A stretch of DNA of 64,000 nucleotides from an uncultured Sulfitobacter sp. (GCA_937928635.1 CALFWM010000048.1:80221-144220), one strand, 5' to 3'. Counted from the stretch's first letter, positions 11,372 to 23,755 are shown. Translations and numbers: made by a program. The notes: a model not told the origin generated them from the letters alone.

Positions 11372-12316
11372 ATGTGTGGTATCGCAGGACGTATTTTGAA
11401 CGCCCCCGGTCAGGTTGGACGGGACCTTGTTAACTTGATGGATGCGCAAGAGCACCGCGGCGCGGATAGCACCGGATTTGCGGTCTACGGTGCCCCGATG
11501 GAACAAGGCTATGTTTTGCGCGGCATGGGGTTTGACAAGGCGCAGATGGACAGTGATCTGGATGCCTTTCGCCACGTGTTGAAAGACCACGGCAGTGACC
11601 TGATGGGTGACCCACGTATCGTGACGGATGCGGCAAAACATTATTGTTTTCGCATGGAGATCAAAGACCCCAAGAACCTGCAGGCCTGGGTTGCGGATGC
11701 CGACGACCTGACCGACCGGATTGAAGTACAATCCTGCGGACGCTCATTGGAAATTATCAAGGATATCGGTGGCGCAGAGCAGGTCAGCGAAAAGCACAAG
11801 GTGCATGATATGATCGGCACCCATGGGTTGGGCCATGCGCGGCTTGCCACGGAATCAAGTGTCTTGCCCAATGCCAGCCACCCGTTTTGGGCGCGCCCCT
11901 TTTCGGATGTGGCGATTGTGCATAACGGGCAGATCACCGACTACTTTACACAGCGGAATCGGCTGGAGCGGGACGGCTATCGGTTCTTGACGGAAAACGA
12001 CTCTGAATTGATTGCTGTATGGGTGTCAGACCAGATGAAACAGGGCCTGAGCATGCAGCAGGCATTGACCAAGTCGATCAGCGCCATTGATGGTGTCTTT
12101 ACATTCATGATCGCCACGCCGGATGGCATTGGATTTGCCAAAGACCGTTTCGCGATGAAGCCCTTGGTGGTTATCGAACATCCCGGCGAACTGGCCGCCG
12201 CCACCGAAGAACAAGCGGTGCGCCGCGTCTATGTAGATGAAAGTGATGTGATCAATCACGATGGTCCCAGCCTGACGGGCATCTGGGGCGTCGGCAACCG
12301 GAGCATGGCAGCATGA
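11372..12316 (+). CDS. class II (Ntn) glutamine amidotransferase-like subunit, GlxB/MgsA-like (GltB N-terminal domain homologue)
   Basis: 314 aa starting 'MCGIAGR' (N-terminal Cys nucleophile). RBS GGGAG upstream. Confidence 0.85.
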   Translation: MCGIAGRILNAPGQVGRDLVNLMDAQEHRGADSTGFAVYGAPMEQGYVLRGMGFDKAQMDSDLDAFRHVLKDHGSDLMGDPRIVTDAAKHYCFRMEIKDPKNLQAWVADADDLTDRIEVQSCGRSLEIIKDIGGAEQVSEKHKVHDMIGTHGLGHARLATESSVLPNASHPFWARPFSDVAIVHNGQITDYFTQRNRLERDGYRFLTENDSELIAVWVSDQMKQGLSMQQALTKSISAIDGVFTFMIATPDGIGFAKDRFAMKPLVVIEHPGELAAATEEQAVRRVYVDESDVINHDGPSLTGIWGVGNRSMAA

Positions 12317-13005
12317 GCGAGATTGTCATCGACGTTGGCAAACGCCACATCCGCGAGATCAACGAAGAACTGCAAGAGGCCTGCAAGAGTGGCAAGCCGA
12401 TCCGGGTGGTCAATACGCTCAGCCGTCATAACCTTGGGGTCGGTTTGCCCGATGGGGCCGATATCACCTTTGAAGGATCGGTTGGGTACTTTTGTGGCGG
12501 TCTCAATACGGGATCAAAACTCCGCATTGAGCGCAACTCCGGCTGGGCCACGGGCGAGGGCATGGCCAAGGGCCATATCCAGGTCGATGGCCGGGCAGGC
12601 ATGTCCTGCGGTGCGGCAATGATTGGCGGCACGATCCACGTCAAAGGCGACGCAGGGCCGCGGTGTGGTGTGGCCATGAAGGGCGGCAACATCGTGGTTG
12701 AAGGCAAGATTGGCTATCAGTCTGGGTTCATGGCGCATTCCGGCAAAATTATCGCGCTGGGTGGTGCCGGCGAAAGCTGTGCAGATGCCTTGTGGGAAGG
12801 CGAAGTCTGGGTTGCTGGGCCGGTCGAAAGTCTGGGCGTGGATGTAGACGTGGTGGAACCCACCGCCGAAGAGGTGGCTGAGGTGGACGCCATTCTGGAG
12901 CCACTTGGGCTGGTGGATAGCGCGCGGGACTGGCGCAAAATGGTGTCGGGTCAGCGGCTTTGGTATTTTGAAGCGCGCGATGCCAGTGCCTGGCTGATGA
13001 TTTGA
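12313..13005 (+). CDS. GXGXG-motif subunit, GlxC/MgsB-like (GltB C-terminal domain homologue, PF01493-type)
   Basis: 230 aa with repeated 'G.aG...G..m.gG.i.v.G' units ('VDGRAGMSCGAAMIGGTIHVKGDAGPRCGVAMKGGNIVVEG'). ATGA overlap with the upstream gene. Confidence 0.85.
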   Translation: MSEIVIDVGKRHIREINEELQEACKSGKPIRVVNTLSRHNLGVGLPDGADITFEGSVGYFCGGLNTGSKLRIERNSGWATGEGMAKGHIQVDGRAGMSCGAAMIGGTIHVKGDAGPRCGVAMKGGNIVVEGKIGYQSGFMAHSGKIIALGGAGESCADALWEGEVWVAGPVESLGVDVDVVEPTAEEVAEVDAILEPLGLVDSARDWRKMVSGQRLWYFEARDASAWLMI

Positions 13006-13057
13006 ATGGGGCGGTCCGCATGAATGCGCACCCTACGGCAGACGGGGAATCCAAAAC

Positions 13058-14482
13058 ATGAGTGACGATACGAAAAAGCCATATGAATACCCATTCGAAA
13101 TGGCCTCCGAAGATGAAATCCGGTTTCGCGATGCGGGTGCTATTGAGGGCCGCCCTGCCGGTGTGCCTTCCTCTTATGATGAGGGTGGGTCCACCCGCTG
13201 GACCCCTGAAGCCATTTCAGAGGTACACGCGCTGGCACAACTCGGTCGGTATCAGGTGCGCGGGTACAACACGTTTAACAAACAAATGCCGACCTTTGAC
13301 GACCTGACGTTTGTGCCCGCCACCATGACGCGTCTGCCGCTCGAAGGATACCGCGAGAAATGTGAAACTAAAACCATTCTGGGTGGTGGCCGTGGGCTGG
13401 TGGAAAAACCGCTGGAACTGGAAATCCCGATCTACATTGCTTCGATGTCCTTTGGTGCATTGTCTGCATCGGCCAAGGCATCACTTGGTCACGGGGCATC
13501 CAAGGTTGGGACAATGACCTGCACGGGTGAGGGTGGCATGCTGGAGGAAGAACGTGCCGCGTCTTCTCGCTTGCTTTATCAGATGTCGCCCGCGCGCTAC
13601 GGTGTGGATCTTGACCACCTGCGCCGCGCCGATGCGTTGGAAATCGTTGTTGGCCAAGGGGCAAAACCCGGCACGGGCGGGTTGCTGCTGGGGATGAAAG
13701 TTTCCCCGCGGGTGTCCAAAATGCGCACACTGCCTGAGGGGGTTGATCAACGCTCCACCATTCGCCACCCGGACTTTCTGGGCGCTGATGATCTGGCCGT
13801 CAAAATTGAAGAGCTTCGCATCGCGACGAACTATCAGGTGCCTATTTTCATCAAGATGGGCGCAACGCGACCGCGCTTTGACGTGGCCGTGGCAGCCAAG
13901 GCGGGCGCGGATGTTGTTGTGGTGGACGGGGCTGAGGGCGGCACAGGTGCCTCGCCTGAGTTGCTGTTGAACCACACAGGTATTCCGACGATGTCCGCCA
14001 TCCGCGCGGCGCGCGAGGCGCTGGATGAGTGCGGCATGACCGGCAAGGTGTCACTGGTCGCGGCAGGGGGTATCCGCTCTGGTGTGGATGCTGCCAAATG
14101 CATTGCGCTGGGCGCAGATGCGGTGATGATCGGCAATGCGGCGATGGTCGCCATTGGCTGTAACTCGCCCCGCTATGAGGAAGACTACACCGCGCTCGGC
14201 ACCTCCCCCGGCGCATGCCATCACTGCCACACGGGCCGCTGCCCTGTCGGGGTCGCAACACAAGACCCGGAGCTGGAAAAACGTATGGACCCCACAGCTG
14301 GCGCAGAGCGGATCGCGCGCTACCTGACCGCCATGACCATGGAAATCACGGCGCTGGCCAAAGCCTGCGGCAAGTCCTCCGTGCACAACCTTGAGGTTGA
14401 GGATTTGCGCGCGCTGTCCTTGCAGGCGTCGGCGTTTACCGGTGTAAAAATGGCGGGCATTGACCGGGCGTATGACTGGTGA
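13058..14482 (+). CDS. FMN-binding glutamate-synthase-domain subunit, GlxD/MgsC-like (PF01645-type)
   Basis: 474 aa. 'IASMSFGALS', 'VVGQGAKPGTGG', 'VVVDGAEGGTGASP' and 'LVAAGGIRSG' are classic GltB FMN-domain motifs. Confidence 0.85.
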   Translation: MSDDTKKPYEYPFEMASEDEIRFRDAGAIEGRPAGVPSSYDEGGSTRWTPEAISEVHALAQLGRYQVRGYNTFNKQMPTFDDLTFVPATMTRLPLEGYREKCETKTILGGGRGLVEKPLELEIPIYIASMSFGALSASAKASLGHGASKVGTMTCTGEGGMLEEERAASSRLLYQMSPARYGVDLDHLRRADALEIVVGQGAKPGTGGLLLGMKVSPRVSKMRTLPEGVDQRSTIRHPDFLGADDLAVKIEELRIATNYQVPIFIKMGATRPRFDVAVAAKAGADVVVVDGAEGGTGASPELLLNHTGIPTMSAIRAAREALDECGMTGKVSLVAAGGIRSGVDAAKCIALGADAVMIGNAAMVAIGCNSPRYEEDYTALGTSPGACHHCHTGRCPVGVATQDPELEKRMDPTAGAERIARYLTAMTMEITALAKACGKSSVHNLEVEDLRALSLQASAFTGVKMAGIDRAYDW

Positions 14483-15174
14483 AAATCGCGGTTCTGGATC
14501 TGTGTATCTGGCTGCCTGAATATCAGGACGGCCAGCCGAAGTTTGGCGATCTGCTTGCCACATGGGCCGCGCGGGGGCTGCCGGATGCGGCGTTTAGCGT
14601 TGTGGACGTGGTGGAGGGTGAAGCCCTGCCAGCGGTCGATGCCTTTGATGGCTTCATCTTATCAGGATCAGATAAGGGTGTTTATGATGACACGCCGTGG
14701 ATGGGCCCGCTGCGCGATTGGCTGATCAGCGCAAAGGAGGCCGGCAAACCACTCTTTGGGGTCTGTTTTGGGCATCAGCTGATGGCGGATGTTTTTGGTG
14801 GCAAGGCAGAGAAAGTCAGCGCGCCTGAGGTTGGTGTGCGCCGGTTTCAGATCGACGGGCAGGATGTGTCTGGTTATGTCTGGCATCAGGATCAGGTGAC
14901 AAAAGTGCCGCCCGGTGCGTCGGTGATTGGGTCGGCGGATTACTGTCCTGTCGCGGCCCTGTCTTACGATTTTCCAGCGATGTCGGTGCAGTTTCACCCT
15001 GAGTATCCGCCGGAATATGTGTCCGACTTTCTTCGCCGCAGTGGGTCTGAGGTATTGCCGCCGGATTTGACCGGCCCCGCGATCAAACAGTTCGAAGACA
15101 GTGATGTTGAAGCGGATTTGTTTGCCGCTCAGATGGCCGCCTTTTTCAACGAGAGCGTGAACGCAAGCCCTTAA
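14479..15174 (+). CDS. class I glutamine amidotransferase-like protein (candidate gamma-glutamyl-amide hydrolase)
   Basis: 231 aa. The GTG start overlaps the upstream TGA. Nucleophile elbow 'GVCFGHQ' and 'QFHPE' (Cys-His-Glu triad pattern). Confidence 0.8.
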   Translation: MKIAVLDLCIWLPEYQDGQPKFGDLLATWAARGLPDAAFSVVDVVEGEALPAVDAFDGFILSGSDKGVYDDTPWMGPLRDWLISAKEAGKPLFGVCFGHQLMADVFGGKAEKVSAPEVGVRRFQIDGQDVSGYVWHQDQVTKVPPGASVIGSADYCPVAALSYDFPAMSVQFHPEYPPEYVSDFLRRSGSEVLPPDLTGPAIKQFEDSDVEADLFAAQMAAFFNESVNASP

Positions 15175-15382: not shown

Positions 15383-16525
15383 CTATCGGCCAGAAGGGCT
15401 CTCTTTGGGCGACAGCTTTTTTCGTCCAGCGATCTTGAACCGGTCGGCTGTGCCGTATTCGCCGAGCGCGACGCCAGCGGTGAAGTCGCCAAAAACAGGG
15501 CCGTGTTTGAACAGGTGACCAGAGCAGCCGCCTGCGAGCAGGACGTTTTCATGCTCCGGGTGCCAATCCACGATGAAATGAGTGTCAGGCGTCAGGATGA
15601 CCTGATTGAACTTGCTGTCCACCACCCGTTGTCCTTCCAGCCCTGGCAGCCGGTGGCGGATATATTGGCGGGTCTTAGTCAGCGATGCCTTTTCGATAAG
15701 ACGTTCATCATTGTTGATATCAATCGGTGTGTTGGGGATCACCACGGCGGCTTTGACCCCTGACCCCTCGGACGAGGGAATTCCAAAGCTGCCTTGCCCA
15801 TGGTCAATCCAGCAGGGCATATTTTCCATATCGAACGCATCTGAACCATCCGGGGTAGAGGTATAGAGCACATTGATGCCCATGATCGCAGAGATAGGTT
15901 TAATGGTGCGCGGAAACAGTTCAGCCATCCAGGCACCGGGCGCCATGACGATAACGTCGGCCATGATTGGCCGCCCTTCCAGCATGGGACGTTCCCGTGC
16001 ATCGGTCGTGACGGTGCCGCGTTTAACCACACCGCCTGCGCGTTTGAACAGATCAAGGGCAGTGATCACGCAGCGATGGGCCATCAGTAACCCGGCTTCT
16101 GGCTCAAACAGCGCATAGCTGATCTCGTCCACTTTGAACTGGGGAAAGCGGTCGTGCACCTCATCCGGGGTGAATTTGTAATAGGGCACGCCGACCTTGT
16201 CGAAAGTCTCAGATGTCGCGTCCTCCCAATGGCAATGCCCTTGGGTGGCAAGGATCAGTGCGCCGCATTCATACATCAGATTCTGGCCGCTCTCGGCCTG
16301 TAGCTCCAGCCACATGTCACGGGATTGACGGACCCAGCGTGTGTAAAATTCATCCCGGCCCGAAATTGCCCGGATCACCCGATTGTAGTCAGAGGAGGCC
16401 GCCCGTGCATGGCCCGGTTCCCAACGGTCAATCAGGGTGACCTGTTCGCCGCGCCGCTGCATGTGCAGGGCTGTCATAACCCCGGCAATACCGCCGCCCA
16501 CAACCACACATGTATTTCGTGCCAT
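15383..16525 (-). CDS. DAO-family FAD-dependent oxidoreductase (sarcosine-oxidase-beta / N-alkyl-amino-acid oxidase-like)
   Basis: ORF track 15383..16657. I trimmed to the ATG at 16525 ('MARNTCVVVGGGIAGVMTA', FAD GxGxxG at the N-terminus). RBS AAGGA upstream. Confidence 0.85.
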   Translation of the reverse strand: MARNTCVVVGGGIAGVMTALHMQRRGEQVTLIDRWEPGHARAASSDYNRVIRAISGRDEFYTRWVRQSRDMWLELQAESGQNLMYECGALILATQGHCHWEDATSETFDKVGVPYYKFTPDEVHDRFPQFKVDEISYALFEPEAGLLMAHRCVITALDLFKRAGGVVKRGTVTTDARERPMLEGRPIMADVIVMAPGAWMAELFPRTIKPISAIMGINVLYTSTPDGSDAFDMENMPCWIDHGQGSFGIPSSEGSGVKAAVVIPNTPIDINNDERLIEKASLTKTRQYIRHRLPGLEGQRVVDSKFNQVILTPDTHFIVDWHPEHENVLLAGGCSGHLFKHGPVFGDFTAGVALGEYGTADRFKIAGRKKLSPKESPSGR

Positions 16526-16562
16526 GACGATAATTTTCCTTGCCGAGTCACTGCATTCATGG

Positions 16563-16578
16563 ATACTGTATACAGAAT
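16563..16578. promoter_or_regulatory. ATACTGTATACAGAAT (15/16 match to the palindrome; operator candidate, site C)
   Basis: Read directly. It is centred in the 96-bp divergent region between the FAD oxidoreductase (start 16525) and the GS-like gene (start 16622). Confidence 0.5.
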
Positions 16579-16621
16579 ACACGCAAAGACAATCAGATTC
16601 TCTGACAGGGAGAGGGACGAG

Positions 16622-17914
16622 ATGAGCCAAGATTTCAGCCTGCCGGAAGGCACCCATACCGTCATTCTGGGGTTAGGTGACTTAAACGGCATTATGCGTG
16701 GCAAACGGATACCGGCCTCGCATTGGGAAACGATTTGCAAAGAGGGCAATGCCCTCTCTGCCGCGATGATGGCCATCGACAGCAATTGCGACGTCTGGGA
16801 CACGCCTTATGTCAACTTCGACAACGGGTATCCGGACATGCATATGTTTCCCATGACCAAGCCTGTGGCTGTGCCATGGGAAGAAGGTGTCGCGGTCTGT
16901 TTTGCGCGCGGTGAAGGGATGGATCACAAACCTGTCCCGATTGATCCACGCAATGCGCTGGTGCGCCAGGTGGAACGGGCCCGGGAAATGGGCTTTGACG
17001 TCTCCACCGGGGCCGAATTGGAGTTTTACCTGCTCGACCCGGAAACCGGTCAGCCGCGTGATCAGGGCATTCAGGTCTATGGCCTTGGTCGTGCCGCGCG
17101 GATGGAGCATATCGTTGGGCCAATCCGCCGTCAGATCAATGAATGCGGCATCCCGATTGAGCAATCCAACCCAGAATATGCGCCCGGTCAGGTTGAGGTA
17201 AACATCCGCTACGATGAAGCGTTGCTAAGTGCGGACCGTGTTGTGCTGTTTAAATCACTGGTGCGCCAGTTGGGCATTGCGCATGGTTATCTTGCAACCT
17301 TCATGCCCAAACCGTTCTTTGAACAATCCGGTAATGGTTTCCACGTGCACTATTCGTTGTGGAAAGATGGCAAAAATGCCTTTGCTGATGGTGGTAAACT
17401 CAACGAATTGGGCAAGAACTTTACCGCCGGTCTGCAGAAACGCATGGGAGAGGCGGCGATCTGTGGGTCACCCACACCCAACGGGTTCCGCCGTCGCCAG
17501 GCTTATACCTTCTGCCCTATCAATACGTCCTGGGGTTATGACAACCGCACCGTTGGGCTGCGGATTATCGAAGGGTCGGACACCGCTGTGCGTGTCGAAA
17601 AACGGGATGCAGGAGCGGATGCAAATCCCTACCTGCTCTTGGCCACCGATCTGGCCGCAGGGCTAGATGGCATTGAACAGGGCATGCAGCCGACGGAGCC
17701 AACCCTGGGCAATGCTTATGAAGATTTTAATGGCGATCCTATCCCCACCACGGCACCGGATGCCATTGCGCAGGCACGCGGGTCTGACTGGTTGAAGGAC
17801 GTCATGGGTGAAACCCTTTGGGAACTTTACCTGCAAATGGCCGAGCGCGAAGTTGGCTTTGTTGAAGAGCAGGTCACGCCCGTCGAAACCGCCCGCTATT
17901 TGAGGACCCTGTAG
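16622..17914 (+). CDS. glutamine synthetase-family protein (GmaS/GlnT-like); candidate gamma-glutamyl-amine synthetase
   Basis: ORF track 16325..17914. I trimmed to the ATG at 16622 (RBS GGGAGAGGGA at 16608-16617). GS catalytic-domain pattern: 'ELEFYL', 'EYAPGQVEVNIRY', 'ATFMPKP...SGNGFHVHYSLW', 'RVEKRDAGADANPYL'. Confidence 0.85.
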   Translation: MSQDFSLPEGTHTVILGLGDLNGIMRGKRIPASHWETICKEGNALSAAMMAIDSNCDVWDTPYVNFDNGYPDMHMFPMTKPVAVPWEEGVAVCFARGEGMDHKPVPIDPRNALVRQVERAREMGFDVSTGAELEFYLLDPETGQPRDQGIQVYGLGRAARMEHIVGPIRRQINECGIPIEQSNPEYAPGQVEVNIRYDEALLSADRVVLFKSLVRQLGIAHGYLATFMPKPFFEQSGNGFHVHYSLWKDGKNAFADGGKLNELGKNFTAGLQKRMGEAAICGSPTPNGFRRRQAYTFCPINTSWGYDNRTVGLRIIEGSDTAVRVEKRDAGADANPYLLLATDLAAGLDGIEQGMQPTEPTLGNAYEDFNGDPIPTTAPDAIAQARGSDWLKDVMGETLWELYLQMAEREVGFVEEQVTPVETARYLRTL

Positions 17915-17915
17915 A

Positions 17916-18185
17916 ATGCAGATCGGCCTTGTCAAAGGAACGCTGACTGCGACCGCAAAGGCCGAACGGCTGACGGGACAAAAGCTGATGGTCGTTGACG
18001 TGATCGACGCTGCTGGCAAGGTCATCGTGCCCTCCTTGGTCGCGGTGGACACCTGCGGGGCCGGCGTTGGCGATGGCGTAATGCTGACCCAAGGGTCGGC
18101 TGCGCGTATGGCCGCTGGCTTGTCCGCCGCCCCCATTGACCTGGCAATTATCGCGGTTGTTGACCGCGTCTCTGTTGATACCTGA
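17916..18185 (+). CDS. BMC vertex pentamer, BMC-P (EutN/CcmL/PduN family, PF03319)
   Basis: 89 aa. '[13 protein letters not shown]...KLMVVDVID...[23 protein letters not shown]...[11 protein letters not shown]' aligns along its length with E. coli EutN as I remember it. The ATG lies 1 nt after the GS-like stop. Confidence 0.9.
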
Positions 18186-18217: not shown

Positions 18218-18526
18218 ATGGCAACTCCTGCACCGGGCCAGATGGCCCTTGGAATGATTGAAACACGTGGCCTCATCGGCGCAATTGAAGCGGCGGACGC
18301 CATGGTAAAAGCGGCCAGCGTCACCATCGTGGGCCAGACCAAGGCAGGCGGTGGGTTGGTCACAACCCTTGTGCGCGGCGAAGTGGGTGCCGTCAAAGCG
18401 GCCACCGATGCAGGCGCAACAGCGGCCAACAAGGTCGGTGATGTCGTGAGTGTTCATGTGATCGCGCGCCCCCATGATGAGCTTGAGGCGATCATCGACA
18501 GCCTTGGCGCTGGTTCCGCAGCTTAA
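18218..18526 (+). CDS. BMC shell hexamer, BMC-H (PduA/EutM/CcmK family, PF00936)
   Basis: 102 aa. '[61 protein letters not shown]...VHVIARPH' is near-canonical. The pore loop reads KAGGG. Confidence 0.92.
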
Positions 18527-18542
18527 GCCCTAAGGACACTCC

Positions 18543-19727
18543 ATGCCCGCTGATTTTGAGGATTTCGCACGCGCTGCCTCACGCAGCCGTTCCGACAGCG
18601 TTCCTGCATCCGCTCCCCTGTCAAAGGTTGCGGTGCTGGGCGGCGGTCCGGATGCGCGTTTGCTAGCGGCCTTGTCCTCGGCGGCAGATTGCGAGGTCAC
18701 GCTGTTCTCGGCCTACGGGCGTGAGTTGGAGCTGATGCGGGCATCCTCTGGCATCGCGTTGCGGGGTGCCGGACCCATTGGCAGCTATCAGGTGGACCGC
18801 GGTGCGGCCTCAATTGCCCTGACCGCAGAACTCGACGCGGCGGTACAGGGGGCGGAGGTGATTTTTCTAACCGGGCCCATTCACAAACAACGCACATACG
18901 CGATGGTCCTGGCGGACCATCTGGTAGATGGCCAAATTTTGGTGCTGGCACCGGGGCGGTCATTGGGGGCGGTTGAATCCGCCTGGATGCTGCGATTGGG
19001 TGGTTGCACGGCGGATGTGACCTTGGTTGAGGTACAAGGACTGCCCTATTGGTATGTGACTGAAGGGGCGACTTTGTATTTGTCCAGCTCTGCCCCTATG
19101 GCTGCATCAACCTTGCCCCGTGGTCGCGGTGGCGTGCTGGATCAGCTAAAATCAATCCTGCCAAATATTGTTAGTACAGAATCTGTATTGGCCTCTGGCT
19201 TCAGTGATCTTTCGGCGGCTGTCGAAATCCCGGCACTTGTGCTGGGTGGGGCTGGTCTGGCACAGGGTGGAGTCAATGTTCCGATGGGTGGAACACCATT
19301 GGCGCAGAACCAGACCTTTGCTGCCTTGATCGGGTCTGATCAGTATCGTTTGATTGAAAGTCTCGCAGAAGAACGCCGTGCCGTAGCCCAAGCCTTTGGC
19401 GTGCGTGGTTTGCCGGATAACGATGCCTGGATTGCGACATATGCTGGTGCCGAGAAAGGCGAAGGTGCACGCCCCGTACCGGACCGTGACACTGCCCGTG
19501 CGATGCTGCGGGATGGGGTTATTGGATCGCTTGTGCCGCTTGCGTCAGCAGCGGAACTGGCCGACATCGACGTTCCCCAAACCCGTGCGCTGATGGCCAT
19601 GACAGGGGCGATTCTGGATGCTGATGTTGCGGCATCCGGTCGGCGGCTGGATACGATGGGCATCACGGAGCGCAATCTGGATGCTGCGCGCCGTACCTTT
19701 GATGCGCTCACGGCAGGAGGCCGCTGA
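18543..19727 (+). CDS. opine (octopine/nopaline) dehydrogenase-family protein with atypical motifs and an N-terminal tail
   Basis: 394 aa. 'ILPNIVSTESVLASGFSDLSAAVEIPALVLG', 'AEERRAVAQAFGVRGLP' and 'GSLVPLASAAELADIDVPQTRAL' parallel opine-dehydrogenase family blocks from memory. The Rossmann motif reads 'VLGGGPDA'. Confidence 0.7.
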   Translation: MPADFEDFARAASRSRSDSVPASAPLSKVAVLGGGPDARLLAALSSAADCEVTLFSAYGRELELMRASSGIALRGAGPIGSYQVDRGAASIALTAELDAAVQGAEVIFLTGPIHKQRTYAMVLADHLVDGQILVLAPGRSLGAVESAWMLRLGGCTADVTLVEVQGLPYWYVTEGATLYLSSSAPMAASTLPRGRGGVLDQLKSILPNIVSTESVLASGFSDLSAAVEIPALVLGGAGLAQGGVNVPMGGTPLAQNQTFAALIGSDQYRLIESLAEERRAVAQAFGVRGLPDNDAWIATYAGAEKGEGARPVPDRDTARAMLRDGVIGSLVPLASAAELADIDVPQTRALMAMTGAILDADVAASGRRLDTMGITERNLDAARRTFDALTAGGR

Positions 19728-21103
19728 TGGACAATGACCTTAAATCCATCGCCGCCGCGCGCCGCGCTGCTGAAAGTGCCTTTGACGCCTATCAAAAATT
19801 TCTGGGCACGGACCCTGCCCATGTAGACGCCATCGTTGACGCCATGGCCCGCGCGATTGAACCCGAGGCGGAGCGCCTTGGCCAGCTTGCCGTAGATGAA
19901 ACGGGGTATGGGAACGTGCCGGACAAACGGGTCAAAAACCTGTTCAACTCCCTGTCGGTGGCGGAGTATCTGCGCGACATCACAACCCTAGGCATGCTCT
20001 GGCGCGATGACGCGACCAAGATTGCCGCCTTTGGTGAACCGATGGGCGTTGTGGCAGCCTTGATCCCGGTCACCAATCCGACCTCTACGATTATCTTTAA
20101 AGTGTTGAGCGCGGTGAAGGCAGGCAATGCGATCATCTGCGCGCCCCACCCGCGCGGTGTACGTGCGGGTCTGGAAACAACCAGGATCATGGCGGAGGTG
20201 GCCGAACAGATGGGTGCCCCCAAGGGGCTGATCCAATGTATGGATCAGGTGACCATTCAGGGCACCGCAGAACTGATGCGACACCGACGGATGTCTGTGG
20301 TGATGGCAACCGGCGGGCCCGCGATGGTCAAGGCAGCCTATTCCAGCGGTAAACCCACGTTGGCCGTAGGGGCCGGGAATGTACCCTGCTACGTGCACAA
20401 GTCGAAAAAGAACGACATTGGTGAAGTGGCCGAAATGATCGTCACCTCCAAGAGTTTTGATTATGGGACGGCCTGTGTTTCAGAACAGGCGGTCATTGCA
20501 GACCCCGAGGTCGCGCGTGATTTGCGCCATGAGATGAAACTGAAAGGTGCCTATTTCTGCACGCCCGCGGAAGCTGACCGATTGGCAGCTGTAATTTTTA
20601 CCGGCAAGCAAGCGATGAACCCGGAGCGGGTCGGGCAATCTCCGCAAGCCCTGGCAGATGCCGCAGGATTTTCGATCCCGCCCCGCACGCGGTGTCTGGT
20701 GTCTGAGGAAACCGAGATTGGTTGGGAACGCCCCCTGTCAGCGGAAAAGTTAAACCCGGTTCTGGCCTTTTATGAGGCAAAGAATTCAGAGCACGGTCTG
20801 GAATTGGCGCAACGCATTGCGCGGTTTGAGGGCTGGGGGCATTCGTCTGTTCTGCATAGTGACGACCCTGAAATTGTCGCCAAATTTGCCACCATCCCCA
20901 CCGGGCGCGTGTTGGTGAACACACCCGCAATCATGGGCGGCATGGGGTATTCGACCGATCTAGAGCCGTCATTCATGTTGGGGACAGGCACATGGTCCGG
21001 GTCAATTACCTCTGACAATGTTACAGCACTCCATCTGATCAACATCAAGCGGGTGGCATATGAGAGCCGACCCTGGCGCGACATCTACAAGGAATACGGG
21101 TAG
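19727..21103 (+). CDS. CoA-acylating aldehyde dehydrogenase (EutE/PduP-like metabolosome core AldDH)
   Basis: 458 aa. 'LAVDETGYGNVPDK', 'ATGGPAMVKAAYSSGKP' and the catalytic-Cys context 'FDYGTACVSEQAVIAD'. TGATG overlap with the upstream gene. Confidence 0.85.
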   Translation: MDNDLKSIAAARRAAESAFDAYQKFLGTDPAHVDAIVDAMARAIEPEAERLGQLAVDETGYGNVPDKRVKNLFNSLSVAEYLRDITTLGMLWRDDATKIAAFGEPMGVVAALIPVTNPTSTIIFKVLSAVKAGNAIICAPHPRGVRAGLETTRIMAEVAEQMGAPKGLIQCMDQVTIQGTAELMRHRRMSVVMATGGPAMVKAAYSSGKPTLAVGAGNVPCYVHKSKKNDIGEVAEMIVTSKSFDYGTACVSEQAVIADPEVARDLRHEMKLKGAYFCTPAEADRLAAVIFTGKQAMNPERVGQSPQALADAAGFSIPPRTRCLVSEETEIGWERPLSAEKLNPVLAFYEAKNSEHGLELAQRIARFEGWGHSSVLHSDDPEIVAKFATIPTGRVLVNTPAIMGGMGYSTDLEPSFMLGTGTWSGSITSDNVTALHLINIKRVAYESRPWRDIYKEYG

Positions 21104-21160: not shown

Positions 21161-21784
21161 ATGTCTGAAATTACCATTCGCGCGTTGATGCAGATCGACA
21201 ATCTGCAACCCAAATTCGCGGCCTACAATGGGGCCACTGTGCAGGGTTCCGTACCGCTTTCCGGGGATACGGTCCTGATCGGGGAATTTGCGCCGGGCAA
21301 TGGTGTGTTTTCGCTGATTGATCGCGCGCTGAAGGCGTCAAGCGTTGAGGCGACCACGCAGATGGTCGAACGGGAGTTTGGCTTTTTCATCCTCCGTTCC
21401 CCCTCAAACGCTGAGGTCTCCGCCGCGCGCGATGCGATGCTGGCTGAACTGGGTGCGTCGATGTCGGACCGTTTGAAACCAGCGATCACAAACACCCAGA
21501 TCATCACCAGCGTAGAGCCCTATCAGGCACAATTGCTCAACAAATGGCGAAAGGGGTCGCTGTTGGTGCCGGGGCAGACGCTTGGCATTATTGAATGCGC
21601 CCCTGCGGCCTATATTTCCATCGCCGCAAATGAGGCGGAAAAGGCCGCAGATATTGACATGGTTGAGGTCCGCGCGGTGGGTCGTTTTGGACGACTGTTT
21701 ATCTCCGGCACAGAAAATTCAGTGCAGGATGCCATGGACGCCGCCGTAACGGCGATTGAGGCTGTTGAGGGCCGCGCTGAATGA
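21161..21784 (+). CDS. tandem-domain BMC shell protein, BMC-T (EutL/PduB-like topology)
   Basis: 207 aa. There are two BMC-like halves: 'TVLIGEFAPGNGVFSLIDRALKASSVEA...FGFFILRSPSNAEVSAARDAM' and 'TLGIIECAPAAYISIAANEAEKAADIDMVEV...GRLFISGTENSVQDAMDAAVTAIE'. Each is preceded by a roughly 35-aa segment, as in EutL. Confidence 0.8.
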   Translation: MSEITIRALMQIDNLQPKFAAYNGATVQGSVPLSGDTVLIGEFAPGNGVFSLIDRALKASSVEATTQMVEREFGFFILRSPSNAEVSAARDAMLAELGASMSDRLKPAITNTQIITSVEPYQAQLLNKWRKGSLLVPGQTLGIIECAPAAYISIAANEAEKAADIDMVEVRAVGRFGRLFISGTENSVQDAMDAAVTAIEAVEGRAE

Positions 21785-22962
21785 GTACAGGCCGCGTCAT
21801 AGGCACTGACACGGTGGAGGATGCACGCCGTCGCAGCCGGTTGATCGTCGAGGTCATGCCCGGCGATATTGTCACTGCCCTCGCGCGGGAATCAGCCGAA
21901 CGTTTTGGCCTGAAACTGGTCGATGGCCCGGTTGAGATGCCTGCTCCGGTGCGCACAGACGGGGCCACATCCATGCGCCGTACGCTTTATCGGCGTGCAC
22001 CCAAATGGCAAGCCCCCGCACGCCGTCCGCGCAAAGCCCGCCAGTTGGGCAAGCTGGCCCTGATTGGCGCAGGTGGTGTGGGTGGCAACATCGCACATTT
22101 GGCCGCGATGGCGGATATGGCGCAAGAAATTGCGTTGATCGACATCGCGCCGGGTTTGGCGGCAGCGACTGCGTTGGATCTAAACCACGCAAGCGGGATA
22201 ACCGGTGCGGCCGGGCGATGCTTGGGTGGTGAAACGCTCGATCTGGTTGCGGGGGCGGAGGTTGTTGTTGTCACTGCCGGACGCGCACGTGGGCCTGGCA
22301 TGACGCGGGCCGATTTGATTGACGTGAATGCACGTGTGATCCGCGCGGCGGGTGAGGCGATCCGCTCTGAAGCACCAGATGCGGTTGTGATTGTCGTGAC
22401 CAACCCACTGGATGAAATGACCGTTAAGATGTTGCGTGCCACCGGGTTCCCGCGGGAGCGCGTCTTGGGCATGGCAGGTACGCTGGATTCCTCTCGCTTC
22501 CGGCATGCCTTGGCACGTGCGGCAGGGGTTGATCCGGCAGATGTTGATGCGATCACCCTGGGAAGCCATGGCGAAGAAATGGCCCCCATTCCGTCCCGTG
22601 CCACGATCAAGGGGCGACCGCTGGAGGTGTTCCTGAGCACCGATCAGATCGAGACCTGTGTGCAGGACGCGATCACCGGTGGGGGTCAGGTTGTCGCCTT
22701 GAAAAAGATGGGGTCCGCGACCATCGCGCCGGCCCATGCCTCTATCGAGTTGATCGACCACATGCGCGATGCGCGGTCGGGCCCTGTTCCGGTTTCTGTG
22801 ATGCTTGAGGGTGAATATGGGATTGAGGGTGTCGTACTGGGCGTACCGGCACATTTGGGTGCGCGCGGATTTGTTAAGGTTGAGGAATTGCGCCTGACTG
22901 ATTCCGAAACTGCAGGGCTGCATGCCGCAGCAGAAGCGATCCGCGCGCGGTTGGGTTTATGA
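21781..22962 (+). CDS. LDH-like malate dehydrogenase-family enzyme with an about 90-aa N-terminal extension
   Basis: 393 aa. From residue ~91: 'KLALIGAGGVGGNIA', 'VTAGRARGPGMTRADL', 'VVTNPLDEM', 'GTLDSSRFR', 'LGSHGEEM'. Residues 1-88 lie outside the MDH/LDH fold. ATGA overlap with the BMC-T gene. Confidence 0.85.
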   Translation: MSTGRVIGTDTVEDARRRSRLIVEVMPGDIVTALARESAERFGLKLVDGPVEMPAPVRTDGATSMRRTLYRRAPKWQAPARRPRKARQLGKLALIGAGGVGGNIAHLAAMADMAQEIALIDIAPGLAAATALDLNHASGITGAAGRCLGGETLDLVAGAEVVVVTAGRARGPGMTRADLIDVNARVIRAAGEAIRSEAPDAVVIVVTNPLDEMTVKMLRATGFPRERVLGMAGTLDSSRFRHALARAAGVDPADVDAITLGSHGEEMAPIPSRATIKGRPLEVFLSTDQIETCVQDAITGGGQVVALKKMGSATIAPAHASIELIDHMRDARSGPVPVSVMLEGEYGIEGVVLGVPAHLGARGFVKVEELRLTDSETAGLHAAAEAIRARLGL

Positions 22963-23366
22963 GCACGCAAATCCACAAGGCTGGCGGACGGTTTGAAGAA
23001 ATTGGCAGCTATGCGCGCGCCAAACGGATTGGCCCCTTCGTTTGGACAGCTGGCACAACCGCGATCGAACCATCCGGCAAAATCCATGCCCCGGATGATG
23101 GATATGCGCAGACGCGCTACATTCTGAGCCGCATCAAAGAGTTCCTGGGCGAGGTTGGTGCCGAGATGCGGCATGTCGCCCGGGTGCGGGTCTATCTGAC
23201 AGATATGAAACACGCTGCCGGGTTCATCAAGGCGCATGGTGAGGTGTTCAAAGACATTGATCCGGTGCTGACGGCGGTGACGGCGGGGCTGACGCAAACG
23301 GGGCTGGTGGTTGAGATTGACGTTGATGCGGTTATTCATGATACAGACGGCACGATAGCGATCTAG
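22959..23366 (+). CDS. RidA/YjgF/L-PSP family protein (reactive enamine/imine deaminase family)
   Basis: 135 aa. 'GPFVWTAGTTA', 'VRVRVYLTDM' and 'PVLTAVTAGL...LVVEIDVDAV' fit the Rid fold. ATGA overlap with the upstream gene. Confidence 0.8.
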   Translation: MSTQIHKAGGRFEEIGSYARAKRIGPFVWTAGTTAIEPSGKIHAPDDGYAQTRYILSRIKEFLGEVGAEMRHVARVRVYLTDMKHAAGFIKAHGEVFKDIDPVLTAVTAGLTQTGLVVEIDVDAVIHDTDGTIAI

Positions 23367-23446
23367 TGTATTCCGGTCGTGCAATGGCGTGCACCACCTC
23401 TCCTTACGGGTTTCATTTTGAACCACCCCGCTCTAGCCTGTCACAC

Positions 23447-23755
23447 ATGTTGTTCAAAGTTGTTAAAGCCCCCTCCGGCGGGTCGCCGCAGTGGGTCCGT
23501 GATGCCTGGGTCGGTGTTCAATTCCAGGCCCTTCAGGGTGTGCCAGTTACCGTACCTGCCCGGGCATCGGGCGAAGCAGAGGTGACGCAGCGGCGCGGCT
23601 ATCCCGCAAATGCACGTGATTTGCTGGGTTTGCTGGCCCTCGCAAACGAAGACGCTGCACGTTGGTATTTGGACAATGCTCCGCAAATGCTTGACCCGAA
23701 ACAGGTTTTTGTTTTGGACGAACCTTGCTGTGTGGCCATCGCTGAGCTGAACTGA
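23447..23755 (+). CDS. hypothetical small protein (last gene of the BMC operon)
   Basis: ORF track 23366..23755. I prefer the ATG at 23447 ('MLFKVVKAPSGGSPQWVRDAWVG...'). No family recognised and the RBS is weak. Confidence 0.4.
   Translation: MLFKVVKAPSGGSPQWVRDAWVGVQFQALQGVPVTVPARASGEAEVTQRRGYPANARDLLGLLALANEDAARWYLDNAPQMLDPKQVFVLDEPCCVAIAELN

Follow-up and report, generated by a model that had tools for sequence, protein, structure and literature searches.

What does a protein with an opine-dehydrogenase fold do in a microcompartment locus of the MIC2 type? Since 2014 and 2021, MIC1 and MIC2 have stood on record under the label "incomplete core, no signature enzyme, function unknown". The window, the whole 64,000-nucleotide stretch of DNA that we analysed, contains all of the MIC2 locus components in order (Table 1), and this set is conserved in 80 loci. 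In the catalogue of Sutter et al. (2021, Nat Commun 12:3809, Suppl. Data 2), the MIC2 entry '6-phosphogluconate-dehydrogenase-like superfamily protein' corresponds to the family of the protein studied here, which we call the ODH-like protein. The same catalogue mentions a short N-terminal extension with a possible helical encapsulation peptide of ~10 aa, gives the aldehyde dehydrogenase (AldDH) of MIC2 as lacking such a peptide and comments on the extension of the malate-dehydrogenase-like (MDH-like) protein. The Ruegeria sp. ANG-R locus (RA27_04045), typed as MIC2 in that catalogue, holds an orthologue of the ODH-like protein, P0062 (RA27_04055). A preliminary description of this DNA had recognized a protein with a possible targeting tail in a BMC operon, which stands, but it had missed that both the locus type and the putative peptide were already catalogued. 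The catalogue gives the entry no function, and the words 'opine' and 'pfam02317' were not found in its supplements in the searches made. A literature search for microcompartments together with opine/octopine dehydrogenase, gamma-glutamyl/GS or MIC2 found no functional study. New here are the placement in the opine-dehydrogenase family, the substitution of the catalytic residues, the conservation of the tail in two phyla, a His-retaining sister group and the links to MgsABC-like genes, a co-occurring flavoenzyme and RidA.

Locus, fold and N-terminal tail

Table 1. Genes of the MIC2 locus and segments of the ODH-like protein, in window coordinates.
Feature	Position	Strand	Basis
Three genes resembling N-methylglutamate synthase MgsABC (GATase_6, GXGXG and Glu_synthase domains)	11372..14482	+	Pfam
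Monomeric sarcosine-oxidase/N-methyltryptophan-oxidase-like FAD enzyme (flavoenzyme), ~380 aa from Met45 of the ORF	15383..16525	-	Pfam DAO
Glutamine-synthetase-like (GS-like) gamma-glutamyl-amide synthetase, GmaS/PuuA-like	16622..17914	+	Pfam Gln-synt_C
BMC-P shell gene	17916-18185	+	Pfam EutN_CcmL
BMC-H shell gene	18218-18526	+	Pfam BMC
ODH-like protein (opine-dehydrogenase fold), 394 aa	18543..19727	+	ORF, PDB sequence matches, AF2 model, Foldseek
Putative encapsulation peptide, amphipathic helix, residues 3-13, ADFEDFARAAS	18549..18581	+	Hydrophobic moment, AF2, conservation
Variable Ser/Pro/Ala-rich linker, residues 14-27	18582..18623	+	pLDDT <50 at 12-21; columns unconserved
Gly-rich dinucleotide motif GGGPDA, residues 33-38, fits GxGxxA	18639..18656	+	Subfamily conservation
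Block TGPIHKQRTY, residues 110-119, MIC2-subfamily-specific, in place of VPAxAH	18870..18899	+	Conservation
Arg139, at octopine-DH Gln118 position	18957..18959	+	Alignment
Glu163, equivalent of octopine-DH Glu142	19029..19031	+	Conserved family-wide
Helix segment DLSAAVE, D222-E228: Asp222 for Asn196, Glu228 for His202	19206..19226	+	Pairwise, profile and multiple alignments
Segment RAMLRDG, residues 319-325, aligned to CENDH R292-D297 (RYFFED)	19497..19517	+	Profile, MAFFT, phmmer
Acylating aldehyde dehydrogenase (AldDH), EutE-like, without encapsulation peptide	19727..21103	+	Pfam, NCBIfam
BMC-T shell gene, tandem-domain, CsoS1D-like	21161..21784	+	Pfam BMC; orthologues CsoS1D_N + BMC
Malate/lactate-dehydrogenase-like (MDH-like) enzyme, N-terminal extension ~90 aa	21781..22962	+	NCBIfam, catalytic-residue inspection
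RidA-family imine/enamine deaminase	22959..23366	+	Pfam, NCBIfam

The ODH-like reading frame begins with an ATG, with an AAGGA ribosome-binding site 8 nt on its 5' side, and its stop codon, TGA, shares one nucleotide with the AldDH start codon, ATG (GGAGGCCGCTGATG); the two genes are translationally coupled. Among the loci compared, this 1-nt overlap recurs in 50/81, and in 79/81 stop and start are no more than 11 nt apart. The GS-like gene is present in 80/80 loci; its product matches the NCBIfam type III GS and gamma-glutamylputrescine-synthetase-like models, both below their cut-offs. The MgsABC-like genes lie no more than 10 kb away in 46-48 of the 80 loci and also occur in the actinobacterial loci. 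The flavoenzyme gene is divergently transcribed, with a start inferred from homologue lengths, and scores 188 bits against the NCBIfam N-methyl-L-tryptophan oxidase model, below the cut-off of 257. The MDH-like protein belongs to an NCBIfam malate dehydrogenase subfamily (306 bits, cut-off 283) and keeps its catalytic residues intact (R-x6-R loop, D/R pair and His); it is a probable NAD+ recycler in the lumen.

The preliminary description had placed the ODH-like protein in the opine-dehydrogenase family, and real alignments together with the AF2 model bear this out. In a phmmer search of the PDB, residues 31-376 aligned with CENDH (1bg6; E 4e-15). The match to octopine dehydrogenase (3c7a) had an E value of 7e-5, and that of the subfamily profile to 1bg6 one of 8e-24. 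The AF2 model (pLDDT 88.7, pTM 0.87) gave 1bg6 as its best Foldseek match (E 7e-21, TM 0.84), then 3c7a, 3c7d and 3iqd; the structural matches after 1bg6 are octopine dehydrogenase, ketopantoate reductases and staphylopine dehydrogenase. Identities as a 3-hydroxyacyl-CoA dehydrogenase, ketopantoate reductase or glycerol-3-phosphate dehydrogenase were rejected, these being more distant fold matches only. Like CENDH and octopine dehydrogenase, the protein consists of an N-terminal Rossmann domain and a C-terminal helical domain, and it retains the Gly-rich loop, Gln131, Glu163, the E277-R278 pair and R367. Unlike them, it has a 27-residue N-terminal helix and linker, GPxHKQRTY where the canonical VPAxAH stands, Asp at position 5 of the Gly motif and substitutions at all of the His202, Arg292, Asp297, Lys156 and Asn196 positions, and its gene lies inside a microcompartment operon. 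The Pfam Octopine_DH (PF02317) score is also below the gathering threshold, at 21.6 bits against 30 (E 2e-4), and the match covers residues 261-357 only. The alignment with this HMM and with crystallised members, which had been proposed as a check, thus found the catalytic positions substituted and the family match below threshold. The protein is a MIC2 cargo with an opine-dehydrogenase fold, as judged from sequence and model, and its targeting to the lumen is predicted.

The reading frame and the three oddities that had been pointed out in it (the tail, GGGPDA and Glu for His) are all found in the sequence, and residues 1-27 read exactly as quoted in the preliminary description. The hydrophobic moment of the whole protein peaks in the tail at 0.78, in the 11-mers that start from residues 4 and 5 (residues 4-15), and AF2 models a helix at 3-13 with disorder at 12-21 (pLDDT <50). 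F5 and F8 are invariant among 120 orthologues, and a [DE]-F-x-x-[FLV]-x-x-A-[LVA] helix persists to ~30% identity in Actinobacteria. Conservation in orthologues, on which the description of the tail as resembling an encapsulation peptide had been made to depend, was therefore found. No encapsulation peptide is visible in the sequences of the flavoenzyme, RidA or the GS-like protein, for all of which we rejected this feature, and no terminal extension is visible in that of AldDH. The ODH-like protein is the sole protein of the locus with a clear, putative encapsulation peptide. It is very improbable that the tail is not a targeting signal and that the protein is an ordinary cytosolic enzyme which merely lies within the operon. 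The helix is admittedly short (~10 residues) and modelled with low confidence (pLDDT ~50), and shell targeting is predicted only; however, the helix is kept across two phyla while the linker drifts. Ordinary family members begin at the Rossmann strand, with an N-terminal extension of 0-7 residues in most canonical representatives versus 26-38 in the microcompartment clade. Relatives of the P0425 type, from a locus without shell genes, have a Pro-rich tail from which the helix is absent, and in most of the loci sampled the ODH-like gene directly adjoins the shell genes, as a rule with BMC-H on one side and AldDH on the other.

Substitutions at the canonical catalytic positions

The residues of the canonical catalytic set were compared between the MIC2 subfamily (n=48) and canonical relatives (n=51). 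Arg292 and Asp297 of CENDH, the catalytic partners of His202, are present in 51/51 and 49/51 of the canonical relatives, and Lys156 in 41/51; in the MIC2 subfamily these three positions are variable or occupied by Gly/Ala. The alignment of the Arg292 region depends on the method. The profile and MAFFT pair R292 with A320 and D297 with G325, and phmmer instead pairs R292 with R319 and D297 with D324; the Arg292 equivalent is variable in the MIC2 subfamily under either alignment. No such ambiguity affects Glu228, which is aligned to His202 by the pairwise, profile and multiple alignments alike, confirming the Glu that had been reported in place of the catalytic His. His202 is the equivalent of His212, which acts as the catalytic His in octopine dehydrogenase (PMC6033044). 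Its position is acidic in 47/48 of the MIC2 subfamily (E in 40, D in 7) and His in 49/51 of the canonical relatives, and the Asn196 position is D in 46/48 and N in 43/51, respectively. Judged by these alignments, the ODH-like protein has lost residues that are essential to catalysis in the opine-dehydrogenase family.

The loss extends beyond the proteobacterial group. In the actinobacterial His-less branch, position 202 is A/G/S/T/N/D/H/V/Y, and across much of the His-less clade it is A/G/S/T; the D...D/E pair is common to the proteobacterial group and one actinobacterial subgroup. The active-site columns are strongly conserved in the canonical and His-retaining tagged groups (p<0.001). In the actinobacterial His-less branch they are not more conserved than the background (entropy 1.58 vs 1.44), and the MIC2 subfamily is intermediate (1.37 vs 1.64, p ~0.13). 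The protein as a whole also evolves rapidly. The median ODH-like/AldDH divergence ratio is 2.46 for MIC2 (n=76) and 0.84 for the His-retaining loci; relative to AldDH, the MIC2 proteins thus evolve about threefold faster than those of the intact sister group. Between the window and the actinobacterial His-less loci, the ODH-like protein is the least conserved component, at 31-33% versus 61-74% for AldDH, BMC-T and MgsC.

GGGPDA had been described as a departure from GxGxxG/A; the motif is there, but formally it is GxGxxA, and we reject the idea that it breaks the Rossmann motif. In the MIC2 subfamily, G33 is found in 48/48, G35 in 39/48, D/E37 in 44/48 and A/G38 in 47/48. The actual oddity is the Asp/Glu at position 5, which is Gly in canonical relatives and Val in the actinobacterial His-less group. 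Conservation covers both the Gly-rich loop and the S-x-[YF]-x-x-E motif of beta2, the latter shared with the intact sister group, and these motifs make dinucleotide binding by the ODH-like protein plausible.

Other residues of the cleft are retained or specific to the subfamily. The block at residues 110-119 is conserved in MIC2 at H114 (85%), K115 (94%), Q116 (92%) and R117 (100%), and at the Q116 position a canonical His is 90% conserved outside the subfamily. Pro112 is conserved as well. Gln118 of octopine dehydrogenase binds the keto-acid carboxylate (PMC6033044); the residue at this position, Arg139, is Arg in 44/48 of MIC2, 72/73 of the actinobacterial His-less proteins and 120/120 of the His-retaining tagged proteins. 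Glu163 is conserved to at least 96% in all groups, and its octopine-dehydrogenase equivalent, Glu142, contacts the amino-acid substrate. Across MIC2 sequences of 36-100% identity, the near-invariant residues are Asp222 (46/48), Ser224, Glu/Asp228 (47/48), Arg139, Glu145, Glu163, the H-K-Q-R block and Arg323.

The His-retaining sister group and its loci

Actinobacterial tagged opine dehydrogenases of the P0197 family retain His202, Lys156 and Asn196 in 120/120 and pass Pfam Octopine_DH, and they themselves carry R292N/Y293H. Their loci resemble that of the ODH-like protein in having GS-like, MgsABC-like, BMC-P/H/Tdp, acylating AldDH and LDH/MDH-like genes. The proteins also have an N-terminal amphipathic helix and linker, and they share the derived residues S56, E61, D98, Y119 and R139 with the ODH-like protein. 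These shared residues and the synteny are the evidence that points to a common origin of the His-less and His-retaining tagged groups. A neighbour-joining tree places the His-less proteins in a single clade and resolves the His-retaining clade, without fixing the position of either relative to ordinary family members. We infer that the sampled actinobacterial loci are of the MIC type. A metagenome scan with P0197 gave two short, distant loci only, both without shell genes.

The two groups of loci differ in their other enzymes. The flavoenzyme is found in 82/84 His-less loci (78/80 proteobacterial and 4/4 actinobacterial) versus 0/7 His-retaining loci, and RidA in 73/84 (69/80 and 4/4) versus 0/7. 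Since the His-less proteins form a single clade, this co-occurrence counts as one event, and Fisher p-values overstate its independence. In the His-retaining tagged loci there is no other candidate for the N-alkylglutamate cleavage step, and the opine dehydrogenases of the P0197 family, unlike the MIC2 proteins, evolve more slowly than their own AldDH. The two lineages provide a natural experiment, an intact tagged enzyme without the flavoenzyme against a degenerate tagged protein with it, and their comparison can show how the cargo of a protein organelle comes to change its role.

For the ODH-like protein, the comparison tips modestly towards canonical catalysis having been lost, because the catalytic set is gone, evolution is about threefold faster and the flavoenzyme and RidA co-occur. 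The interpretation given in the preliminary description is partly supported. An N-alkylglutamate-cleaving enzyme is a very good fit for the His-retaining sister group, but the protein of the window leans the other way. A catalytically dead scaffold agrees with the lost catalytic set and the rapid evolution, but the conserved Gly loop, beta2 motif and HKQR block, together with the conserved Asp222, Glu228, Arg139 and Glu163, leave room for an active, remodelled enzyme.

A proposed pathway and a proposed role for the ODH-like protein

The N-methylglutamate pathway of methylamine use consists of GmaS, MgsABC and MgdABCD, and putrescine is used by the Puu pathway. Like these pathways, the MIC2 locus has a GS-like ligase (for the context of GmaS, see PMC7948447), three MgsABC-like genes and a class-I amidotransferase-like hydrolase. 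Unlike the N-methylglutamate pathway it has no MgdABCD, in place of which stand an opine-dehydrogenase-fold protein and/or a monomeric sarcosine-oxidase-like enzyme, and unlike both pathways the aldehyde-handling part of the system would be enclosed in a shell. We propose that a small primary amine would be imported via a Liv-type ABC transporter and gamma-glutamylated by the GS-like ligase, and that the MgsABC-like enzymes would convert the gamma-glutamyl amide to an N-alkylglutamate. Oxidative cleavage of the latter would release glutamate and an aldehyde. Inside the shell, the acylating AldDH would turn the aldehyde into acyl-CoA, and the MDH-like enzyme would recycle NAD+. In the sister lineage, the cleavage enzyme is most likely the opine dehydrogenase tagged with an encapsulation peptide and bearing the intact His/Lys/Asn site; in the lineage of the window, C-N oxidation may have been taken over by the flavoenzyme. 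The ODH-like protein keeps its putative encapsulation peptide and probably the binding of NAD(H) and ligand, and as the tagged partner it is likely to draw AldDH, which is tag-less and translationally coupled to it, and possibly other cargo into the shell. Its persistence would then be due to non-catalytic roles.

We give a probability of roughly 0.45 to our main reading, that the ODH-like protein is a non-canonical remnant of an N-alkylglutamate dehydrogenase, retained as a tagged and probably NAD(H)-binding partner of the tag-less AldDH. The further generalization, that MIC-type organelles break down alkylamines with a tagged N-alkylglutamate dehydrogenase as their original signature enzyme, and that in the lineage of the window this enzyme was displaced by a flavin oxidase and RidA and became an inert AldDH adaptor, is rather unlikely to hold in full. 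Several points weigh against the remnant. Its complex with AldDH and its binding of NAD are predictions, and the near-invariant cleft looks remodelled, not decayed, which accords less well with a dead scaffold than with a new site for catalysis or ligand binding. A second source of aldehyde in the lumen is not apparent; the flavoenzyme and RidA have no encapsulation peptide, and were they cytosolic, aldehyde formation would take place outside the shell, against the logic of a microcompartment. There is also mechanistic precedent for activity, since imine reductases function with varied or absent acid/base residues and engineered CENDH variants with K156T/R292V/Y293H, which lack Lys156 and Arg292, are still active.

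These points lend substance to the reading, a real though minority possibility, that the ODH-like protein continues to work as an NAD(P)-dependent secondary-amine dehydrogenase with a remodelled site, the aldehyde-forming signature enzyme of the lumen. Glu228/Asp222 would act as the base, Arg139, Glu163 and Glu145 would hold the glutamate moiety, and the HKQR block would line the cofactor/substrate site. The imine would be hydrolysed spontaneously or by RidA, and the flavoenzyme would serve a different step or substrate. Such an enzyme would explain the conserved cleft, Gly loop, beta2 motif and Pro112, the retained Arg and Glu at the octopine-dehydrogenase Gln118 and Glu142 positions and the D...D/E pair shared with one actinobacterial subgroup. 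It would also explain why this protein carries the sole clear encapsulation peptide of the locus, as a metabolosome needs a luminal aldehyde source. The absence of Lys156 and Arg292 would fit a carbonyl partner that lacks a carboxylate, and both the active CENDH variants and the R292N/Y293H of the intact sister group agree with this. However, all groups that are demonstrably canonical, the tagged sister group among them, have His202 as an invariant residue (49/51 in canonical relatives), and its position is A/G/S/T in much of the same His-less clade; evolution has accelerated, and a flavoenzyme of the same reaction class co-occurs. An improbable alternative is that the protein runs reductively as a luminal NAD+ regenerator, standing in for the missing alcohol dehydrogenase. 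Aldehyde, glutamate (as the pre-formed imine) and NADH would give an N-alkylglutamate, which would exit the shell and be re-oxidised by the O2-dependent flavoenzyme. Opine-dehydrogenase equilibria favour reductive condensation, MIC-type loci have neither alcohol dehydrogenase nor phosphotransacylase, and the flavoenzyme accompanies the His-less proteins; moreover, with aldehydes the imine arises spontaneously, which would lessen the need for the His/Lys/Arg machinery. Against this, the intact MDH-like enzyme with its microcompartment-specific extension already offers NAD+ recycling, and the cycle would be partly futile.

For the remnant as an AldDH partner, the closest concept comes from the beta-carboxysome, in which CcmN and CcmM are non-catalytic, enzyme-derived adaptors, one of them carrying an encapsulation peptide. 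The ODH-like protein would resemble them in concept only, as an enzyme fold without catalysis that links cargo to the shell via a terminal amphipathic helix; the fold and the type of organelle differ, and its adaptor role is a proposal. If true, no pseudoenzyme adaptor of enzymatic descent would have been described before it in a catabolic microcompartment, and the short unit of helix and fold would be a candidate means of cargo loading for engineered shells. The intact relatives point to a job for MIC2, the breakdown of small amines via N-alkylglutamate. The present analysis connects the "6PGDH-like" protein, hitherto unexplained, with the opine-dehydrogenase family as well as with a GmaS/MgsABC-like module, and it gives a testable route from amine to gamma-glutamyl amide, N-alkylglutamate, aldehyde and acyl-CoA. 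The MIC2 ODH-like locus occurs in at least 178 species genomes, and its best 80 matches are almost all from marine Alpha- and Gammaproteobacteria; thus, it may touch on marine amine and nitrogen cycling.

Family membership and gene neighbourhood

By sequence, the ODH-like protein is clearly homologous to the solved opine dehydrogenases. It matches N-(1-D-carboxyethyl)-L-norvaline dehydrogenase (CENDH; PDB entry 1bg6) with an E value of 4e-15 as a single-sequence query and 8e-24 as a subfamily profile, and octopine dehydrogenase (3c7a) with an E value of about 1e-5; the Pfam Octopine_DH match, at 21.6 bits, lies under the cut-off of 30. The AlphaFold2 model, for which 120 orthologues served as input, is of high confidence, with a pLDDT of 88.7 and a pTM of 0.87. 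Its top PDB match is 1bg6 (TM 0.84), followed by octopine dehydrogenase, ketopantoate reductases, D-mandelate dehydrogenases and staphylopine/pseudopaline dehydrogenases. The family proposed in the preliminary description is therefore upheld.

The gene is part of one long operon and has a ribosome-binding site, AAGGA, 8 nt upstream of its ATG. Its TGA stop overlaps by one base the ATG that opens the following gene (GGAGGCCGCTGATG), which encodes the acylating aldehyde dehydrogenase (AldDH). This one-base overlap recurs in 50 of 81 loci, and the two genes are at most 11 nt apart in 79 of the 81; such closeness indicates that their predicted translational coupling is conserved. The locus belongs to type MIC2 of the 2021 microcompartment catalogue (PMC8217296, Suppl. 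Data 2), whose MIC2-typed Ruegeria sp. ANG-R locus holds an orthologue (P0062).

We detected 593 relatives, the best 120 of which are 60–86% identical and about 394 aa long; wherever a source is named, it is Sulfitobacter, Ruegeria, Aliishimia or a related genus. Among species-representative genomes, a scan turned up relatives in 178. With few exceptions, the best 80 belong to marine Alphaproteobacteria (Paracoccaceae, Rhizobiaceae, Ahrensia, Nitratireductor) and Gammaproteobacteria (Granulosicoccaceae, Halioglobus, Chromatiales). Many of the gene absences among their loci arise because contig ends cut the locus.

Features of the locus in window coordinates, with the number of loci holding each gene among the best 80 of the 178 genomes
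Order	Feature	Coordinates	Strand	Loci of 80	Remarks
1	GntR regulator
2	Three genes like N-methylglutamate synthase MgsABC			46–48
3	Class-I amidotransferase-like hydrolase	14479–15174	+	40
4	Monomeric sarcosine-oxidase/N-methyltryptophan-oxidase-like FAD enzyme (flavoenzyme)	15383–16657	− (opposite)	78	ORF has 44 codons upstream of likely start (MARNTCVVVGGGIAG, nt 16525)
5	Glutamine-synthetase-like (GS-like) ligase			80
6–7	Shell genes BMC-P, BMC-H			74, 80
8	ODH-like gene	18543–19727	+		ATG start, 394 aa
9	EutE-like acylating AldDH			77
10	Tandem-domain BMC-T shell gene			73
11	Malate/lactate-dehydrogenase-like (MDH-like) gene	21781–22962	+	69	N-terminal extension of ~90 residues
12	RidA			69
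	129-aa ORF between RidA and transporter genes	23366–23755	+	9
13	Liv-type ABC transporter
	Amidase	28510–29964	−	1

N-terminal tail and catalytic positions

The three strings quoted in the preliminary description correspond to residues 1–27, 33–38 and 213–232. Its helix-plus-linker tail is well founded and conserved in orthologues: residues 4–15 have the top helical hydrophobic moment anywhere in the protein, the model places a helix at residues 3–13 followed by a disordered stretch, and Phe5 and Phe8 are invariant across orthologues, with a drifting linker. In a library-wide search, full-length relatives keep a [DE]-F-x-x-[FLV]-x-x-A-[LVA] helix and a linker of 15–25 residues down to ~30% identity. 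The N-terminus of ordinary family members lies directly at the Rossmann strand, without helix or linker. As read from sequence and model, the tail anatomy is standard for an encapsulation peptide, with a putative targeting role.

The dinucleotide motif, GGGPDA, had been regarded as irregular. It does fit GxGxxA, and the oddity is confined to the fifth position, which is Asp or Glu in 44 of 48 members of the window's subfamily and Gly in canonical relatives. The suspected Glu-for-His replacement proved correct: pairwise, profile and multiple alignments alike place Glu228 at CENDH His202. The other positions were counted in the same two groups.

Residues at catalytic and substrate-binding positions in 51 ordinary relatives and 48 members of the window's subfamily
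Position	Ordinary	Subfamily
CENDH His202	His 49/51	Glu 40, Asp 7 of 48
CENDH Arg292	Arg 51/51	variable
CENDH Asp297	Asp 49/51	Gly/Ala
CENDH Lys156	Lys 41/51	variable
CENDH Asn196	Asn 43/51	Asp 46/48
His of VPAxAH	His 46/51	Gln 44/48, inside invariant GPxHKQRTY block
CENDH Ala111 (octopine-DH Gln118)	Arg 23/51	Arg 44/48
CENDH Glu134 (octopine-DH Glu142)	Glu 49/51	Glu 46/48

Three residues of octopine dehydrogenase bear on substrate binding (PMC6033044): Gln118 for the carboxylate of pyruvate, Glu142 for the amino-acid substrate, and His212, which touches both the carbonyl of pyruvate and the carboxylate of arginine. Glu142 is kept in the window's protein as Glu163, and the Gln118 position is occupied by an invariant Arg139.

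Tagged actinobacterial relatives

Two tagged groups occur in actinobacteria. The His-less group (Nocardioides, Solirubrobacterales and others) shows the gene order of the window: MgsABC-like, flavoenzyme on the opposite strand, GS-like, BMC-P, BMC-H, ODH-like, AldDH, BMC-Tdp and LDH-like genes, with RidA nearby; the GS-like gene is missing from two loci. Its proteins keep a clean GAGPVG motif, but at position 202 even close relatives differ: A, G, S, T, N, D, H, V and Y all occur there. The His-retaining family is large, with 1225 hits in Actinomycetota, Acidimicrobiia and Gaiellales, and combines a classic encapsulation helix (e.g. MSDPRVDAIVAAVMKEL) with a long Pro/Ala linker. His202, Lys156, Asn196, Arg139 and Glu163 are all kept in 120 of 120 sequences; Arg292 is replaced by Asn or His, and Tyr293 by His. 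CENDH engineered at positions 292 and 293 accepts carbonyl partners without a carboxylate.

Six sampled His-retaining loci (L085–L090; e.g. ODH at L086 8001–9317 and L087 10001–11317) hold the same microcompartment system. In the seventh (L091 10001–11254, P0425 type), the protein has a Pro-rich tail without an amphipathic helix, the neighbours are MgsABC-like, GS-like, diol-dehydratase and 2-oxoacid-dehydrogenase genes, and no shell genes lie within 10 kb; it looks like a shell-less form of the same pathway module. The derived residues S56, E61, D98, Y119 and R139, common to the tagged groups, link these to each other. In several His-retaining loci, AldDH (60–63% identity), BMC-T (65–75%) and MgsC (73–77%) match those of the window as well as the His-less actinobacterial ones do, whereas the ODH is just 25–28% identical. 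Neither the flavoenzyme nor RidA turned up in any of the 7 His-retaining loci by Pfam listing or tblastn; among His-less loci, the flavoenzyme is present in 82 of 84 (Fisher 4e-9, kinship ignored) and RidA in 73 of 84 (Fisher 4e-6, kinship ignored). The His-less proteins form one clade; therefore, this pattern is effectively a single ancient event rather than many independent ones.

Proposed pathway and role

We infer a pathway in which an amine would be imported, gamma-glutamylated by the GS-like ligase and converted to an N-alkylglutamate via the MgsABC-like enzymes. Cleavage would yield glutamate and an aldehyde, which the shell would hold for conversion to acyl-CoA by AldDH; the MDH-like enzyme, whose catalytic Arg/Arg/Asp/Arg/His residues are intact, would regenerate NAD+. 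For the cleavage step, the His-retaining lineage offers no candidate but the tagged ODH. This protein is a candidate N-alkylglutamate dehydrogenase and appears to be the signature enzyme that has long been missing for MIC-type microcompartments.

In the window's lineage, the loss of the canonical catalytic set coincides with the arrival of a sarcosine-oxidase-like enzyme and RidA in the locus. We favour, with a probability of about 0.45, the reading that the flavoenzyme took over and that the ODH-like protein has been kept because it bears the tag and partners the tag-less, translationally coupled AldDH, probably still binding NAD(H). Compared with the rest-of-protein background in each group, active-site columns are more conserved in ordinary relatives (entropy 1.10 versus 2.08, p<0.001) and in the His-retaining group (0.37 versus 1.11, p<0.001), not more conserved in the actinobacterial His-less group (1.58 versus 1.44) and weakly so in the window's subfamily (1.37 versus 1.64, p about 0.13). 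No enzyme-like protein of the locus evolves faster than the ODH-like one: its divergence is a median 2.46-fold that of its own AldDH in MIC2 loci (n=76), against 0.84-fold in His-retaining loci (10 pairs, 5 loci), and 1.2- to 1.7-fold above that of RidA, the MDH-like enzyme, the GS-like ligase and the flavoenzyme.

The main rival, only somewhat less probable, is that the protein is still an active dehydrogenase with a remodelled cleft and Glu228/Asp222 as the base. This would also solve the missing targeting peptide of the flavoenzyme and RidA, none being visible in either sequence. Asp222, Ser224, Glu228, Arg139, Glu145, Glu163, His114–Arg117 and Arg323 are nearly invariant in the window's subfamily and, in our reading of the model, sit in segments lining the inter-domain cleft; together with the kept Gly loop and beta2 motif, they are signs of retained function. 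That the protein works reductively, recycling NAD+, is unlikely, and a cytosolic, non-targeted protein is less likely still, to the point of being hardly credible beside the conserved tail.

The locus type, the protein's presence and a possible encapsulation peptide were already on record (PMC8217296); we found no later functional work in the literature, nor a proposed function. New are the opine-dehydrogenase identity, the catalytic-set loss confirmed by real alignments, a tag that is conserved across phyla and that relatives away from shell loci lack, the tagged sister group with its intact site, and the mutually exclusive pattern of the latter with flavoenzyme and RidA. The pathway hypothesis for MIC-type microcompartments results from these findings.

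Several minor observations concern the neighbours. Flavoenzyme homologues are 379–393 aa long, and no amphipathic helix was found at either end of the window's flavoenzyme. The MDH-like extension reads MSTGRVIGTDTVEDARRR...DIVTALARESAERFGLKLV..., is labelled EutQ/cupin-like in the catalogue (PMC8217296) and may be that enzyme's own way into the shell. The 129-aa ORF has no Pfam match; its tblastn occurrences are mainly Sulfitobacter-like. The amidase and the amidotransferase-like hydrolase flank the system; the former is not conserved in related proteobacterial loci, although the Nocardioides locus does have an amidase. The window's GS-like and BMC-P genes are one base apart (17914/17916). In Nocardioides sp. 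TF02-7 (L081 7991–9655), the ligase and BMC-P (EutN) are called as one 554-aa product, either a real fusion tying ligase to shell vertex or a frameshift or gene-calling artefact. The flanks of two His-less actinobacterial loci (L082 and L092; 1–4800, 14300–21100) encode a P450, a zinc alcohol dehydrogenase, an SDR, an aminoglycoside-phosphotransferase-like kinase, a class-III aminotransferase, a second aldehyde dehydrogenase and gamma-glutamyl hydrolases. This set is reminiscent of the pathways for isopropylamine (ipu) and amino alcohols (RMM) and gives a hint that the substrates may be small alkylamines or amino alcohols. Within the opine-dehydrogenase family, P0229 has two tandem AAAIAAEVGG helix copies, like a doubled encapsulation peptide, and P0187, P0215 and P0230 are fused to a ~150-residue N-terminal domain with the look of a PTS EIIA-type regulatory domain.
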